64,000 nt of DNA, taken from Escherichia coli. GTDB lineage: Bacteria > Pseudomonadota > Gammaproteobacteria > Enterobacterales > Enterobacteriaceae. The notes beneath the pieces are model-generated. The model did no database searches. It was not told the origin of the DNA and was given only the letters and a program-made list of their open reading frames with translations. The stretch lies in NCBI RefSeq assembly GCF_024700885.2, contig NZ_CP117016.1; one strand, written 5' to 3'. Shown here in pieces: positions 30,217-38,319 of this stretch; position 1 is the stretch's first letter, and each line of letters begins with the position of its first letter. Both the position numbers and the translations under genes were made by a program.

Positions 30217-30861
30217 TTATCTTTTTGAAGTCAGGACATTTACCAGTTCACTTAAAACTCTCTTTTGTTCTTCATCCTGAAGATATTGAATCCGGAATTT
30301 AATCTCTTCTGCAACCCGTCTTGTATTGGACTCATTAAGTATTTTTGTTATTCGCTGTCTCTGATGTTCAGGCTGGCCTTCCATATTTCGTAAAACCAGA
30401 TGAAATAATATATCATAAAGTGCGCAATGCCATGAATAACCATCATTGGTTAAAATAAGCTCCCAAACCCGCTCCTGCTCAGCAATAAGCTGCAGAACAA
30501 AGGATTCAACCTGTTCTGATTGTCCGGGGACAACCCGGTATAGCGGCGCAATCACAGCAAAAAACAGTTCATTTAGCCAGGATTCCGCTTCCTTCTCGCT
30601 CCTGAAAGATGGACAGTTCTGTATTCTTCGTTCGTATTCACGGGTAACCTGCTCCGGAATATCCTCCGGCGGTGTCAACCACTTATTCCTGAGCAATATA
30701 CTGGTTGACGGATGGCAGCAGGCTATTTCAGCAATAATTTCACGTAATGCCTCCGGGCTGAACTTCTTCAGCTGATTGTAGTGCTCCCGGGTAAAACCAT
30801 GATCATCGCATAAAAGTTGCCATGTCATTGATATACTGTTTGCCATTCCTTTCTTCATCAT
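30217..30861 (-). CDS. Hypothetical protein (214 aa), last gene of the ibrA-ibrB-perC-like operon
   Basis: Intact ORF 20 nt downstream of the perC-like gene; no motif recognised. Confidence 0.45.
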   Translation of the reverse strand: MMKKGMANSISMTWQLLCDDHGFTREHYNQLKKFSPEALREIIAEIACCHPSTSILLRNKWLTPPEDIPEQVTREYERRIQNCPSFRSEKEAESWLNELFFAVIAPLYRVVPGQSEQVESFVLQLIAEQERVWELILTNDGYSWHCALYDILFHLVLRNMEGQPEHQRQRITKILNESNTRRVAEEIKFRIQYLQDEEQKRVLSELVNVLTSKR

Positions 30862-30881
30862 TAATACCTGTTACATGAATA

Positions 30882-31190
30882 TCAACAGACCGGTGTACCT
30901 TTTCTGAATACCTCCCCGGACGGACTGGCAATCCCCATTCTCCTCAGCGTGGCATCTGCAGCTTTCGCCACTTCGCTGATATCCAGCTTTTCAGGTAGCG
31001 GCGGGGACGATATCTGCGCCAGGCAATAATTCCTGCGCAACAACAACCACTCCCGTTGTGCTTCTGTACATTCAACATTTCCCATAACAAAAAGCCAGCG
31101 GGCAGAAGCTCTGCGCCAGCAACCAGCAGCCTCCAGTTTTTGCGCAACCATGTCTTCCACGACTTCCGGGGGACTCTTTTTCCTGCTCAA
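30882..31190 (-). CDS. PerC-family transcriptional activator-like protein
   Basis: 102 aa; AQKLEAAGCWRRASARWLFVM...REWLLLRRNYCLAQIS resembles the PerC-family core (LEAKGLWRRAA.RWL) as I recall it. Confidence 0.5.
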   Translation of the reverse strand: MSRKKSPPEVVEDMVAQKLEAAGCWRRASARWLFVMGNVECTEAQREWLLLRRNYCLAQISSPPLPEKLDISEVAKAADATLRRMGIASPSGEVFRKGTPVC

Positions 31191-31229
31191 AACATCAACT
31201 CACTGAAATAATATACATACCTGACGGTC

Positions 31230-31874
31230 TCAGCGAACCGTCCATGCCGGGCTGAAGTCCTCTTCCTGAAACAATTCCGTCAGCCCGCTAATCTGTTTCA
31301 GTCTCAGTACTTCATCCTGGTCCATACCCAGCTCAGTGCCAATGCGTTCATCCATCCAGCCCAGGCGTGAAAGATCCCTGACAATATCGGACATAGAGGT
31401 TATCTGGTGTTTACCCCTGGCCCGGTTATGTCGAATGGTCGCTGCAATACGTGAAGCCTGTCCCTTTCTTTCCGGATTAATACAGGTCACTGGCAACCAG
31501 CCCTTCAGACGTTCTCCCGTACCTGCTTCCCTGCCCAGTAACTGACGATGAAAACCATCCACGACCAGATAATGCTCTTTCTCTTCCGAGACAACCACAG
31601 GCTGCGTGAACCCATCCTGCTCCAGTGAATGTTTCAGCAGTTTCTTCTCACCCGGCGCCATGACATTGGGGTTATAATCGTTAGCCACCACCTCATCCGC
31701 TTTCACCCACAGCACACAGTCCACAGGCTCCTGTGCAAAAGGACTGACCTCATGAAGCACCCTGCGCAGGTGATTAAGGGCCTGTATGGCCTCTTCTTCT
31801 GGTCGTTCCTGGCTGAAGTACTGACGAATCATGTCACTCAGTACCTCCACTTCAGGTGTCACAGAATCCCCCAT
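31230..31874 (-). CDS. ibrB: ParB-like nuclease domain protein, IbrB-like
   Basis: 214 aa; ParB/Srx-type motif (NDYNPNVM...LEQDGFTQPVVV...YLVVDGFHR); overlaps the upstream PAPS-reductase-like gene. Confidence 0.65.
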   Translation of the reverse strand: MGDSVTPEVEVLSDMIRQYFSQERPEEEAIQALNHLRRVLHEVSPFAQEPVDCVLWVKADEVVANDYNPNVMAPGEKKLLKHSLEQDGFTQPVVVSEEKEHYLVVDGFHRQLLGREAGTGERLKGWLPVTCINPERKGQASRIAATIRHNRARGKHQITSMSDIVRDLSRLGWMDERIGTELGMDQDEVLRLKQISGLTELFQEEDFSPAWTVR

Positions 31875-33091
31875 TCATTCCTCCTTTCCTTCATACGCTG
31901 CAGGTAACGTTCATAGTGCCGGGGTTTGTTCGGACTGAAGGAGAGAGTCCGGCACCAGAAATCATTCTTTATGAGTGTTTTACAGATACGTCGCCAGGAC
32001 GGAATATCCCGGCTCCCCAGATCATTCTCCTGTTCGTTCGGGATGTCATCCGGGAAGCCCCGCGTCTGATACCAGCGCAGGTAGACAGCAATTTTATTAC
32101 GGTAATGTTCTGCCGTTCTTTCCGGCATCACATCCAGCAGGAACATCGCATAGCTGCGCCAGGTATGATGGGCCGGTTTTGATATACGTTTACGCAGGGC
32201 AAAATAGGCACCGCTTTCATTGGCATAAAGCGCCCCGCTGGCAGCGCCTGACACCCGCTCACACATCCTGGCCCAGGTTTCCGGCTCCAGAACATGGTAA
32301 AGCCACAGTCCCTTACGTTGTTCAGGACCAAAAGGTTCACAGACACGCATGTTGCGTAACGGTACGCCGGCACGGTACATCAGGTCATACAGGGGATTGT
32401 AGATGGCACGGGTTCTGGTGTGATATATCCAGATATCACGAGTTTTCCAGTCATACAGCGGATACATGGTGTAGTAAAACCCTTCAGGCGATGCCGTGGT
32501 CCAGGGCTTATCATCGGCGTATCTCAGTTTGCGCTGGGATACCAGTCCCATGAACCGGTTAAGGGACTCATCCGCACGGACACCGGTCAGTACTGCCACA
32601 CCACATTTATTGTCTGCAAACCAGGAAGAAAATGCCGGAACAAATTCTTCAAACGTCATGGCATACCGGTAAAAGGGAAAATACGCCATATCTGTAATGG
32701 CCCCCTCCGGTGGCTGGCGAACCCACTTCACACCAGACTCCCAGCATATCCACTCCGGCTGAAACTGAGAAACACCGTTTACCGTGGTCAGGGGAAGTGC
32801 CACCCAGTAAAAGGTTTCCGTCACATCATGGTACATTTCCCGCATCTTCTGAATATGTTCAATGGTGCACTGGTACTGAGCCTCCCAGTCAATGAACAGT
32901 ACAGAGAAACGACGTTTTTTCCTGCGGGCCACATCAGCCAAAAGATGGAAAAGCACGGTGGAATCTTTACCACCGGAAAAAGAGAGACAAACTGATGGAA
33001 ATGTTTCAAAAATCCACTCAATACGAGCAATTGCTGCACGCAGAACATTAGTACAAAGCCAAATTTTGTCTGTCATTAAATGATCACGCAT
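31859..33091 (-). CDS. ibrA: PAPS-reductase-like (PP-loop ATP pyrophosphatase) protein, IbrA-like
   Basis: 410 aa; PP-loop motif CLSFSGGKDSTVL near the N-terminus; paired with the ParB-like gene as in ibrAB. Confidence 0.65.
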   Translation of the reverse strand: MRDHLMTDKIWLCTNVLRAAIARIEWIFETFPSVCLSFSGGKDSTVLFHLLADVARRKKRRFSVLFIDWEAQYQCTIEHIQKMREMYHDVTETFYWVALPLTTVNGVSQFQPEWICWESGVKWVRQPPEGAITDMAYFPFYRYAMTFEEFVPAFSSWFADNKCGVAVLTGVRADESLNRFMGLVSQRKLRYADDKPWTTASPEGFYYTMYPLYDWKTRDIWIYHTRTRAIYNPLYDLMYRAGVPLRNMRVCEPFGPEQRKGLWLYHVLEPETWARMCERVSGAASGALYANESGAYFALRKRISKPAHHTWRSYAMFLLDVMPERTAEHYRNKIAVYLRWYQTRGFPDDIPNEQENDLGSRDIPSWRRICKTLIKNDFWCRTLSFSPNKPRHYERYLQRMKERRNEWGIL

Positions 33092-33131
33092 TACTGAACA
33101 ATATTATCTGCATCCCTTGATATAAAACAAT

Positions 33132-33962
33132 TCATAATTTTTGTATCGAGTTGGCCAACCTTTTTTCATTACCAAATCGAGTTGTGTAATATCTCTCTTC
33201 GATACCATACAGCAAAAGTTTAAGCTCTTCGTCACAAGAAATTTCGAAACAGCCAGTGCCATCATCAAACTTTAATTTTTCAGAGCAATAATCATTTATA
33301 TAAGTTAGCATATTCCCCCTGTCACTTACATCCATTTGGTTTAACGTATCCATCGCTAACGCTATTCTTTTTCTGTTTGGTTTTGAAACATTACATGCTT
33401 TATATTCACCAGAGAGAGCAATAAACGACTCCCCCAGAAACTGTTCAACATCCTGTTCTGTTGCCTCTTTATAAAGAGTATCGATACCATTAAACATGGA
33501 AGAAATGGCTGACAAGGATTTAAATATAAGCGTGTCCTTTGCAGCAAGATATACTGCATCCGGGGTCTGGTTAACAACCAGACGATTCTTCCCGCTCTCT
33601 ATCTTTGCTCTATCACCAAGTTCGATCATTTTTTTCTTGAGATATAATGATGGTGTTACCTTCTGAAAATAAAAGTCACCACTTTGAAATGAAAAAATAA
33701 ATGCTATCTTTGAAAAATATTTTTTAGGCAATTCATCATAATTTTTTGAATCAAACTCATCTTTCAAAAAGGATGGGCAGTATTCCCGTTTACTAAATTC
33801 ACTGAGACTAAACCAGGAATCTTCATCAAGATTATGATCCGGTGCATACGGAACCAATGAACACACTGACAGATCAACCCTTTCAAAAAGGGTATGATCT
33901 GAGACAATCTTAAAATATGGTTTTTTCCTGAGACCTTTTGCTTTAACAAATACATTATCCAT
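33132..33962 (-). CDS. Hypothetical soluble protein (276 aa), second gene of the AT-rich two-gene cassette
   Basis: Translationally coupled to the upstream membrane-protein gene; strongly AT-rich codon usage; no catalytic motif recognised. Confidence 0.5.
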   Translation of the reverse strand: MDNVFVKAKGLRKKPYFKIVSDHTLFERVDLSVCSLVPYAPDHNLDEDSWFSLSEFSKREYCPSFLKDEFDSKNYDELPKKYFSKIAFIFSFQSGDFYFQKVTPSLYLKKKMIELGDRAKIESGKNRLVVNQTPDAVYLAAKDTLIFKSLSAISSMFNGIDTLYKEATEQDVEQFLGESFIALSGEYKACNVSKPNRKRIALAMDTLNQMDVSDRGNMLTYINDYCSEKLKFDDGTGCFEISCDEELKLLLYGIEERYYTTRFGNEKRLANSIQKL

Positions 33963-33964
33963 TC

Positions 33965-34525
33965 TTATTTCCTTTCGATAAAGGTATAGTTATTAATCCT
34001 GAAAGCCATGGGCACTACAATATCTTGCGGTACTTTATACCTATAAGGACTGATAAGAAAAATCGACGCTCCTGTTTTTGTCTTAATATTATAAAACTCA
34101 TACCTGAAAACAAGAAACAAAGGATTGAAATATAAGGCCTGAGATAAAAATGTAAAAATAAACAGCACTCCATAAACAAAGAACAACGCCCCCCAGTTAT
34201 TTATACTCAGGGCAACAAAAAAGTACCCCAGATAACTCGGTAAAAAAGAGTTATTCGCATGCTCAACTGAAATCACCTCACCTTTTTTAAACTCATCTTT
34301 TCCCAGCGCAGCACTAAGCACAAGACTGACTTTAGTCAAAACAACAGGTATTAAAAAATAAAAAAGATACGACCCTACCTGAGGAATACCACTTAACCAC
34401 TGTAAACTCTGTTCATGCTGAAAAAAGTAAAACAACGTATATTTCCTTTGCACCAAAAATATAATTATCAACAAAGAAGTGGCATTGAATGTAAGCAGCA
34501 ATCTAAAAAGGATGTTAATTATCAT
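33965..34525 (-). CDS. Small polytopic membrane protein (186 aa, about 4 TM helices), first gene of the AT-rich cassette
   Basis: Hydrophobic segments INILFRLLLTFNATSLLIIIFLV, VGSYLFYFLIPVVLTKVSLVLSAAL, YLGYFFVALSINNWGALFFVYGVLFIFTFL. Confidence 0.5.
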   Translation of the reverse strand: MIINILFRLLLTFNATSLLIIIFLVQRKYTLFYFFQHEQSLQWLSGIPQVGSYLFYFLIPVVLTKVSLVLSAALGKDEFKKGEVISVEHANNSFLPSYLGYFFVALSINNWGALFFVYGVLFIFTFLSQALYFNPLFLVFRYEFYNIKTKTGASIFLISPYRYKVPQDIVVPMAFRINNYTFIERK

Positions 34526-34739: not shown

Positions 34740-36107
34740 TCACTTCATGTCCCCTTGCGTCAAAACCCAGTAACGACTCACCAGCTCGACAAGACCATTT
34801 TCCACCTTTTTTTGCTGCTGTTCACTGCTATTCTGGTTACGAACTTCATCATAGCGACGTAACTGCTCTTCTGCCGGGATATGCCGGTTAAAAGCCTGCA
34901 TGATGCCAAACACCTCCGTTTTCAGTTCACTGACCGTCATGTATTTTCCCCGCTGCTCATCCAGACGGTTCAGGCGCTCAGCCAGCTGCTGTAAGCGGGT
35001 CATGCCTTCGTTCCAGCCCGCCATCGCCTCTTCCGGGAGCGCACGACTCCTTACACTCTTCTGCCAGTTATCCACCATTTCCTGAACACGGGGATTGTCG
35101 GGAAAAAGTACCCTCAGTTGCTGCAGCAGCTGCGCACTGCGTTGCAGGTTGTATGCCGGGGGTAGTTCTGCCAGTCGTGTTATCTGCTGACCGGAAAGGG
35201 TTATCCACTCTGACGCATGATTTAGCAGTGAAGGTGTTCTGCTGAGCTGTGTCATCTGGCCTGCTGAAAGCACATCCGGTGGTGGTGTCAGCAACGCCCT
35301 GAGTTGCTGCTCCGCCGGTGATGGCTGTGTCAGAAACTGCCATCCCGGAATGGCCACGCTGACCGCCAGCAATGCCGCACAGACACCAGTTACAAACGGT
35401 TTCAGAAACGTGGGCGGGGATTTCTGAAGGGAATGTGTGTTTTCTTTTCCGCTCTCTGCTTTTGTTTCAGAAACAACATACACCAGACGGGAGTGCGGCA
35501 GGGTCTGATGTTCCTGTACGTCCGGAGCATCAGACCGGAGTGCCTGCGCCGGAAGGGTTACCGGAGACGATACTTCACCCTGCACAGGCTGGTTCTCCAG
35601 GCGGGTGATATATCCCTTCACCATGGCTTCCGGTAAAGCCACTTTACTGCTCTGTTTAAGTTCGTGCCGGGCCAGTGTGTCACTCAGTGCCTTCAGGAAT
35701 GTTTCGGTCTGATACAGCAGGGGCAGGTTGTCACGGTCGTCCGGAGGCATGGCCCGAAGCGTTTTTTGCAGATGGTTGAACAGACCGGTAATAATTTCCA
35801 GCCGGGCGTGGGTATTCAGCGGCCACATCACTGACCAGTGATGCCGGGTCAGCGCCACAATCAGAGCCAGCCCTTCATTCAGACCACTTAACCCTGTTGT
35901 ATGCATCCGGGCGATGGTGTACCAGGATGCCGTCTGTAATTCCACGCCATTGTGTTCATACAGACGCAGGCAGAGTGTTTCCACGTAACGCCAGTCCACA
36001 TCCGGGCGTGCCGGGTGAGTCAGTTTGCTGATTTCATCGCGCAGGGCAGCATAATCCGGTAATGACCGGGGGTCACCACCGGTTTTCAGTTTCACTTCAG
36101 AAGTCAT
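34740..36107 (-). CDS. ImpA-N-domain membrane protein, VasL-like T6SS accessory protein
   Basis: 455 aa; ImpA-N-like N-terminus (DPRSLPDYAALRDEISKL...NGVELQTASWY...GLNEGLALIVAL) and a central TM helix (VTGVCAALLAVSVAIPGW). Confidence 0.6.
   Translation of the reverse strand: MTSEVKLKTGGDPRSLPDYAALRDEISKLTHPARPDVDWRYVETLCLRLYEHNGVELQTASWYTIARMHTTGLSGLNEGLALIVALTRHHWSVMWPLNTHARLEIITGLFNHLQKTLRAMPPDDRDNLPLLYQTETFLKALSDTLARHELKQSSKVALPEAMVKGYITRLENQPVQGEVSSPVTLPAQALRSDAPDVQEHQTLPHSRLVYVVSETKAESGKENTHSLQKSPPTFLKPFVTGVCAALLAVSVAIPGWQFLTQPSPAEQQLRALLTPPPDVLSAGQMTQLSRTPSLLNHASEWITLSGQQITRLAELPPAYNLQRSAQLLQQLRVLFPDNPRVQEMVDNWQKSVRSRALPEEAMAGWNEGMTRLQQLAERLNRLDEQRGKYMTVSELKTEVFGIMQAFNRHIPAEEQLRRYDEVRNQNSSEQQQKKVENGLVELVSRYWVLTQGDMK

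Positions 36108-36531: not shown

Positions 36532-38319
<1,788 letters not shown>

Follow-up and report, generated by a model that had tools for sequence, protein, structure and literature searches.

The IbrA/IbrB family was reportedly named in 2002 by Sandt, Hopper and Hill from work on Escherichia coli ECOR-9, in which both of the overlapping ibr genes are said to be needed. According to the summary of Sandt et al. given in PMC7649339, the ibr genes enhance the expression of prophage eib genes. The core-genome paralogue of the pair, ybdM-ybdN of K-12 (ybdNM; L107:4748-6570), is repressed by CitR/YbdO and H-NS; when citR/ybdO is deleted, this repression of ybdNM is relieved and expression of the flagellar and cysteine regulons goes up as well (PMC9068703). 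As late as 2022, YbdM was termed 'completely uncharacterized' (PMC8764527). Here we analyse a pair of this kind in a 64,000-nucleotide stretch of E. coli DNA (contig NZ_CP117016.1 of RefSeq assembly GCF_024700885.2; hereafter the window), in which ibrA and ibrB precede three further genes on the same strand, namely a perC-family gene, a gene for a 214-amino-acid (aa) helical-repeat protein with some likeness to SpnT, and a small open reading frame (ORF), orf107. We lean, with modest confidence, towards a reading in which ibrAB and the three genes that follow are two modules of an intact accessory block of ~3.3 kb, with IbrA and IbrB acting as trans-activators and an adjoining Kiwa system being unrelated cargo. 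The locus is already known, in that it has been sequenced, annotated and named; thousands of E. coli genomes already carry annotations for its genes, and the locus itself changes nothing.

The assignment of the pair is carried by domain content, gene arrangement and identity to named relatives. ibrA (31859-33091, minus strand) encodes 410 aa with a PP-loop domain of the phosphoadenosine phosphosulfate (PAPS) reductase type, PAPS_reduct, and a C-terminal helical DUF3440; ibrB (31230-31874, minus strand) encodes 214 aa with a ParB/Noc-like N-domain and a helix-turn-helix (HTH). The ATG of ibrB lies 16 nt ahead of the ibrA stop and is preceded by an AGGAGG box, as seen on inspection of the sequence, and this overlap has the classic layout of predicted translational coupling. 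The initial annotation of this DNA, made from the letters alone, had described a PP-loop PAPS-reductase-like protein overlapping a ParB-like one and had likened the two to IbrA/IbrB; both descriptions are borne out here, similarity having been found to IbrA/IbrB, to PAPS reductases and to ParB. Escherichia phage PhiR5_2 has, downstream of two antirepressor genes, a pair annotated IbrA/IbrB to which the present one is 90% identical; identity to K-12 YbdN and YbdM is 58% and 56%, respectively. Because RefSeq also names the ibrB product 'IbrB-like domain-containing protein', membership of the IbrA/IbrB (YbdN/YbdM) family is supported, as judged from sequence, and the lengths of the ORFs and the hidden Markov model scores of the block genes are far beyond chance.

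Within IbrA, the PAPS_reduct domain is split (Pfam, 4.8e-7 and 6.6e-7) and accompanied by an ATP_bind_3 match to the PP-loop and by DUF3440 (1.3e-24), and the whole protein matches phrog_2302 at 2e-82. Its AlphaFold model, built on 64 homologues, has a mean confidence (pLDDT) of 84.9, and the closest structural relatives of this model are FAD synthase and CysD, in which AMP is transferred to phosphate/sulfate acceptors. Alignments of 9 and of 64 homologues, including those from phages of Streptococcus, Lactobacillus, Mycobacterium and Flavobacterium hosts, were used to follow residue conservation. Across the larger of these, SGGKDS (residues 39-44), D68, E70, R172, E175, S176 and D214, among others, are invariant, the SGGKDS loop holding in phage homologues of four phyla, and the catalytic motifs are retained even in virulent phages, which leaves little doubt that IbrA works as an ATP pyrophosphatase or an adenylyl-transferase. 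Cysteines behave otherwise: neither alignment holds an invariant one, the phage sequences having A or S in place of C251, C380 is the only near-invariant cysteine among the 64 sequences, and no iron-sulfur (Fe-S) motif or cysteine cluster is conserved among them.

These observations bear on two sulfur-based interpretations of IbrA. The RefSeq product name, 'phosphoadenosine phosphosulfate reductase', would make it a metabolic reductase of PAPS or adenosine phosphosulfate serving sulfur assimilation, a role which we regard as highly improbable. CysH-type PAPS reductases carry their catalytic cysteine at the C-terminus, and no such residue is conserved in IbrA, which instead keeps a canonical SGGKDS PP-loop and adds the 170-aa DUF3440. 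Its NCBIfam scores lie far below the curated cut-offs of the CysH models (35.1 bits against 154 for NF002537, 33.6 against 254.2 for TIGR02057, and 29.2 against 165.1 for TIGR00434), and its obligate pairing with a ParB-like, putative DNA-binding protein is equally foreign to a metabolic reductase; a CysH-type identity was thus rejected, and the RefSeq name is a misnomer. An identity as a DndC-type Fe-S sulfur transferase was likewise rejected, since IbrA scores 15 bits against the DndC equivalog TIGR03183 (NCBIfam cut-off 290.4) and conserves no cysteine. Its PADLOC matches are partial and confined to the PP-loop (BrxP, 2.4e-7; DndC, weak), and no dndA, dndD or dndE gene, nor any ssp (sspABC) gene, was found among the ORFs and annotations within ±20 kb. 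The initial annotation had considered a function beyond regulation plausible, by reference to DNA-modification modules. That broader suggestion is sustained by catalytic motifs which are invariant even in virulent phages; its Dnd-like, sulfur-based version does not hold, given that no cysteine is conserved and that the scores are far short of the model cut-offs.

In the case of IbrB, single-sequence searches gave weak matches (Pfam ParB_N, 0.014; PDB, 0.029), and the significant matches to ParB and Noc came from family profiles only: the IbrB family profile matches ParB (4umk, 4e-9) and also Noc (7ol9), spanning both the N-domain and the HTH. IbrB also matches phrog_2159, 'ParB-like', at 9e-85. 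Three motifs are invariant in the family, YNPN, DGFHR (G107, R110) and RHNRARG (N150, G154). G107 and R110 align to the GERR box of ParB, and N150 to the Asn of the Noc ENLQR motif, an alignment that fits nucleotide binding; we infer that IbrB binds DNA as a protein of the ParB/Noc type. The chain stops ~25 residues past the HTH, leaving IbrB with no C-terminal dimerisation domain; no ParA-like ORF was found among the nearby ORFs and annotations, and positions 29700-33300 hold no convincing inverted or direct repeat of the kind expected of parS-like sites. Models of DndB gave no match to IbrB. As ParA and the dimerisation domain are both missing, the candidate identity of IbrB as a partition ParB was rejected.

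The pair has many viral relatives. A total of 224 phage records contain IbrA/IbrB-type pairs, most of them belonging to phages of Flavobacterium, Mycobacterium and Streptococcus, and in 63 of the 78 viral contigs with a full-length IbrA that formed the basis of our context counts, the gene for IbrB is at most two genes away from that for IbrA. An SNF2-like helicase (~390-400 aa, phrog_62) adjoins the pair in 17 of these contigs, and stands directly upstream of it in Streptococcus, Lactobacillus and Flavobacterium phages (for example at L006:3824-4993, L007:3854-5023 and L013:3240-4451); the Streptococcus and Flavobacterium helicases are homologous to one another (30% identity, 3e-40). A 143-aa family, here termed X143, is a separate neighbour in 29 of the 78 contigs, and another 13 have it as a C-terminal extension of IbrB. 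The family has no match in Pfam, PHROGs or PDB, and bears the motifs WEC...GMY and LTN...NR.AWLGQAA (examples are L047-L062 from IMG/VR contigs and L012:6555-6953, gp106 of mycobacteriophage Gaia). In further phage loci a cupin resembling EctC or cysteine dioxygenase is inserted or fused.

Some of these viral contexts bring the pair close to packaging genes. In phage FCL-2, the helicase and the pair lie between terminase and portal, and in mycobacteriophage Gadjet the pair immediately precedes the large terminase, positions which, together with the ParB-like character of IbrB, would suit a role in DNA segregation (ParB-type partition) or in packaging, as a terminase accessory. We hold such a role to be very unlikely. 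The objections to partition raised by the make-up of IbrB apply here too; chromosomal and island copies need neither function; other phages carry the pair among early or replication genes, or past the lysis module; and a large terminase was recorded in at least 2 of 80 viral loci, a lower bound since the probes were two single sequences.

The same contexts speak to a different explanation, in which covalent DNA modification is the primary function: IbrB would select the target, and IbrA would adenylate a position on the base or backbone, with substitution to follow. Such a mark might serve anti-restriction in phages and act epigenetically in E. coli islands, making eib activation a by-product. 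The strict conservation of catalytic motifs in lytic phages, the helicase directly upstream of the pair, the additional domains fused to IbrB (X143, and also the cupin) and the AMP transfer performed by the closest structural relatives are each in keeping with this proposal, and the authors of a mycobacteriophage study have put forward a DndC-like role for the pair (PMC8092301). Nevertheless, our search of the literature found no modified base tied to the pair, and since neither a cysteine nor an Fe-S motif is conserved, chemistry of the Dnd/Ssp type, on which the analogy is founded, is excluded. The E. coli versions are also bare, with no helicase, X143 or cupin found in the window, at the other E. 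coli loci or at ybdNM, and no cognate restriction partner is conserved beside ibrAB in the E. coli contexts inspected. We therefore treat covalent modification as the primary function as a possibility of rather low probability.

Turning from the pair to the block which it heads, the four co-oriented genes that the initial annotation had placed at 30217-33091 are found as minus-strand ORFs at exactly those coordinates. The perC-family gene occupies 30882-31190 (minus strand; 102 aa from a TTG start, or 89 aa from the ATG at 31151 that RefSeq uses) and the 214-aa gene occupies 30217-30861 (minus strand). Intergenic distances are -16 nt between ibrA and ibrB, 39 (or 78) nt between ibrB and perC, and 20 nt between perC and the 214-aa gene. 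A fifth co-oriented ORF, orf107 (29828-30151, minus strand, 107 aa), lies 65 nt past the 214-aa gene and beyond the limits first drawn; it has a GTG start and a basic, low-complexity tail, and no family match in NCBIfam, PADLOC or PHROGs. It is annotated straight after the 214-aa gene in strains 55989, CFT073, WCHEC025970 and MLI114, and was present in all ten inspected contexts of strains with perC and the 214-aa gene. Since orf107 is annotated with the other four genes in every complete copy inspected, the unit is slightly larger than was initially proposed. Directly downstream of orf107, genes for IS3-family transposases and integrase-core fragments fill 27679-29797, separating the block from a type VI secretion system (T6SS) cluster of the aai type.

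As had been claimed, the perC gene encodes a small PerC-like activator, matching PF06069 at 6e-36 over model positions 2-89 of 90, that is, in full length; it also matches phrog_994 and phrog_10396, both 'transcriptional activator', and RefSeq places it in the PerC family. The protein of 214 aa had been listed as unknown, and indeed no match to it was found in NCBIfam, PADLOC or PHROGs. Its family counts 38 representatives among 1.84 billion proteins, and the named relatives that were looked up are all from Enterobacterales. Residues ~23-176 distantly resemble the N-terminal ~140-150 residues of DUF6880/'SpnT' proteins of 459-464 aa (E 6e-9 to 3e-6), the C-terminal two thirds of the full-length (~460 aa) DUF6880 architecture being missing, and the model shows a solenoid made of alpha helices alone, whose structural neighbours are generic HEAT/ARM proteins and nothing more specific. 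The UniProt/NCBI name 'SpnT protein' thus overstates the relationship and is a misnomer.

The distribution of these genes shows that the block consists of two separable modules, ibrAB and perC-spnT-like-orf107. Of 5426 complete E. coli genomes, 2136 (39%) contain DNA resembling ibrAB, single genomes having as many as 4 copies and plasmids accounting for 75 copies in all; the four-gene region occurs in 970 of the same set (about a fifth). A group of ~1000 genomes carries ibrAB without perC, beside a gene for a TonB-dependent receptor. Further instances of ibrAB alone come from a plasmid, from a site adjoining a YadA-like pseudogene, and from the nin region of a lambdoid prophage, where the genes are inserted on the opposite strand. 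Conversely, perC, the 214-aa gene and orf107 are retained in many strains in which ibrAB is deleted or truncated. The GC content steps down along the block, from 0.50-0.54 in ibrA, ibrB and perC to 0.41-0.43 in the 214-aa gene and orf107. The 'operon' of the initial annotation is thus upheld as far as orientation and close spacing are concerned, and is not upheld as a single unit, because two separable modules stand juxtaposed. Within one part of the block, joint expression has some precedent: in the adherence experiment of a study on Shiga toxin-producing E. coli, ibrB, perC and the next hypothetical gene, which have consecutive locus tags, were induced 2.4- to 7.6-fold on adherence to epithelial cells (PMC7649339), a result that fits co-transcription of that portion. 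In E. coli KS-NP019, fragments of a YadA-like pseudogene (a trimeric autotransporter of the Eib type) lie directly downstream of ibrB (L009:9487-10012), a vicinity that echoes the functional link between ibr and eib.

The 3.1-kb region is 100% identical to that of E. coli MLI114 and 99.9% identical to those of enteroaggregative E. coli (EAEC) strains 55989 and 042, with the same genes annotated; in these three genomes it sits between two T6SS clusters of one EAEC chromosomal island, amid insertion sequence remnants. In CFT073 the same block lies beside a tRNA-Phe gene and an integrase, and its ibrB is frameshifted. The product names already given to the block in RefSeq are 'phosphoadenosine phosphosulfate reductase', 'IbrB-like domain-containing protein' and 'PerC family transcriptional regulator', the remainder being hypotheticals. 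An uninterrupted ORF of 455 aa at 34740-36107 (minus strand), with ImpA_N/TssA-like and VasL domains (TIGR03362, 1e-22), is represented in the RefSeq record of the 100%-identical MLI114 by three pseudogene fragments (an ImpA N-terminus, a ShlB/FhaC fragment and VasL); two explanations offer themselves, a chimeric T6SS gene standing as an orphan, or an artefact of annotation.

The AT-rich cassette noted initially as lying directly upstream of ibrA is indeed in that position (33132-34525, minus strand), and proves to be an independent defence system, Kiwa, whose link to the block is only positional. kwaA (33965-34525, 186 aa, minus strand) encodes a membrane protein and kwaB (33132-33962, 276 aa, minus strand) a protein of the DUF4868 type; PADLOC matches are 3e-10 and 2.4e-12, respectively, and the genes lie 2 nt apart. 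Their GC content is 0.34-0.35 against 0.50-0.53 for ibrAB. RefSeq entries for these genes are mostly 'hypothetical' or even 'ATP F0F1 synthase synthase', with a single record reading 'KwaA family protein', and the neighbour deserves the label Kiwa in annotation. In an alignment of five ibrA loci, homology starts ~45 nt into ibrA, and genomes that lack Kiwa match the query only to its position 2950, equivalent to window position 33049; only loci with Kiwa have these first ~14 codons of ibrA. This puts the edge of the cargo ~14 codons inside ibrA, and the junction (33049-33131) comprises these codons and the 40-bp spacer between kwaB and ibrA. No promoter- or terminator-like site was predicted in the spacer, the scan counts being at the level of shuffled sequence, and with so short a gap co-transcription of Kiwa and ibrA is geometrically possible.

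Kiwa occupies this position in 26 of the 5426 genomes, and as the four-gene region occurs in 970, Kiwa is incidental to ibrAB; the candidate notion that Kiwa and ibrAB form one system was rejected on the same counts (26 genomes against 970-2136). In other strains the same slot holds an Old-like nuclease (1e-47) or a Mokosh-like helicase (5.5e-44). E. coli WCHEC025970, which has the same five-gene block, carries a complete Shango system directly downstream of orf107 (L010:2728-8552; SngA 7e-100, SngB 9e-187, SngC 3.5e-278), and so defence cargo is found on both flanks of the block in different strains. The block is thus a conserved flank of a defence-rich cargo region, and Kiwa an incidental occupant of a variable slot. 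Further upstream in the window, a gene for a 595-aa NERD+UvrD helicase (36532-38319, minus strand) matches the PADLOC candidate C3a187 at 1e-139; in identical genomes a GIY-YIG/T5orf172 nuclease gene is found upstream of it (near 38.5-39.8 kb), and the two genes may constitute a two-gene candidate defence system.

Given such company, ibrAB or the entire five-gene block might itself be an anti-phage or anti-plasmid defence system. Residence among Kiwa and the NERD+UvrD candidate here, and among the Old-like nuclease, Mokosh-like helicase and Shango elsewhere, would accord with this idea, as would the occurrence of ibrAB as an opposite-strand moron in a lambdoid prophage. We nonetheless judge it improbable. 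IbrB had no match in PADLOC-DB v2, and IbrA matched BrxP and DndC only weakly and over the PP-loop; virulent phages often carry the pair, some of them with structural and packaging genes next to it; its paralogue is a silent core gene of K-12; and the block is often decayed while adjacent defence genes persist. Conserved genes that flank a cargo hotspot are, moreover, usually island backbone and not cargo.

We return, then, to trans-activation by the ibrAB module as the preferred reading. Here ibrA-ibrB would be a mobile, phage-derived two-gene unit, paralogous to the silent K-12 core operon ybdNM. IbrB, by means of its predicted nucleotide-binding N-domain and HTH, would bind DNA, and IbrA, translationally coupled to it and allied to the PAPS-reductase/FAD-synthase/CysD clade, would supply an ATP-dependent chemistry which is neither PAPS reduction nor sulfur insertion of the Dnd type. 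Together on DNA, the two proteins would switch on poorly expressed, horizontally acquired genes in trans, an effect reportedly demonstrated by genetics for the ECOR-9 pair and the prophage eib genes; activation would need the chemistry of IbrA at sites chosen by IbrB. perC, the SpnT-N-like gene and orf107 may contribute further trans-acting genes of a regulatory type. Insertion of Kiwa appears to have replaced the region upstream of ibrA together with the first ~14 codons, so that ibrA is probably read through from Kiwa in this genome, or else weakly expressed. The route to activation may be a clamp like that of VirB or KorB, by analogy, or a covalent DNA mark, and the accessory genes of the phage loci favour the latter.

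Several considerations weigh against this reading. The functional evidence for the pair is genetic only and comes from one strain, and in our comparison the PhiR5_2 and K-12 pairs stood in for that of ECOR-9. A search of the literature returned no biochemical activity, DNA target or structure for any IbrA, IbrB, YbdN or YbdM, and a promoter scan of the window found none for ibrA. Frequent decay, as in the frameshifted ibrB of CFT073 and the ibrAB deletions, implies weak selection on the block in these islands. Finally, the pair is common in virulent phages in association with an SNF2-like helicase, a cupin and the 143-aa domain, a setting more in keeping with machinery that modifies DNA than with a transcription factor, and the activation of genes in E. 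coli could then be incidental to such a machine.

The last of these points admits a more speculative synthesis, which we advance tentatively and as less probable than the accessory block itself: IbrA/IbrB and YbdN/YbdM would be an ATP-dependent, DNA-acting machine, in which a nucleotide switch of the ParB type recruits a cysteine-free PP-loop adenylyl-transferase, the product being a new DNA mark or remodelled nucleoid-bound DNA. If so, the 'co-activation' known for prophage genes would follow from the action of such a machine, as perhaps would the fact that ybdNM is silenced in K-12. The value of the pair lies in its being a pointer, present in 39% of complete E. coli genomes, as silent ybdNM in every K-12, and in 224 phage records. 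The invariant PP-loop, the failure of the sulfur reading and the phage extras together make it a tractable target for the discovery of either a new DNA modification or an enzyme-assisted regulator of the ParB type.

Comparison with described systems places the individual components as follows. The PerC of enteropathogenic E. coli (EPEC) and the Pch proteins of enterohaemorrhagic E. coli (EHEC) prophages resemble the perC product here in being small, in matching PF06069 over its full length and in residing on mobile elements; unlike EPEC perC, the gene here adjoins ibrAB and not perA/perB. SpnT (DUF6880) of the Serratia marcescens quorum-sensing transposon TnTIR is, like the 214-aa protein, an all-alpha helical-repeat protein encoded on a mobile element, although the similarity is distant (E ~1e-8), covers the N-terminal ~140 residues only, and relates a protein of 214 aa to one of ~460 aa.

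For the pair itself, DndB/DndC and BrxP of BREX type 4 offer the same combination of a ParB/Srx-superfamily protein with a DGxHR box and a PAPS-reductase-like PP-loop ATPase. Unlike the Dnd proteins, IbrA lacks the conserved cysteine cluster and misses TIGR03183, and IbrB shows no DndB match. IbrA/IbrB of ECOR-9 and YbdN/YbdM of K-12 share with the present pair the PP-loop PAPS_reduct and DUF3440 of the one partner, the ParB_N and HTH of the other, and the overlap of their genes. The present pair differs from them in preceding perC, the SpnT-N-like gene and orf107, and in that a Kiwa cassette seems to have taken the place of the native upstream region and the beginning of ibrA. Noc, KorB and Shigella VirB are CTP-dependent clamps of the ParB family, VirB being an anti-silencer, and IbrB likewise has a ParB N-domain, a GxxR box and the Asn of ENLQR, followed by an HTH. 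Unlike these clamps, IbrB is much shorter, lacks the C-terminal dimerisation domain and depends on an enzyme partner, IbrA; we know of no comparable partner for Noc, KorB or VirB. By analogy, there may be a functional likeness to VirB, IbrA and IbrB having a genetically defined role in switching on horizontally acquired genes.

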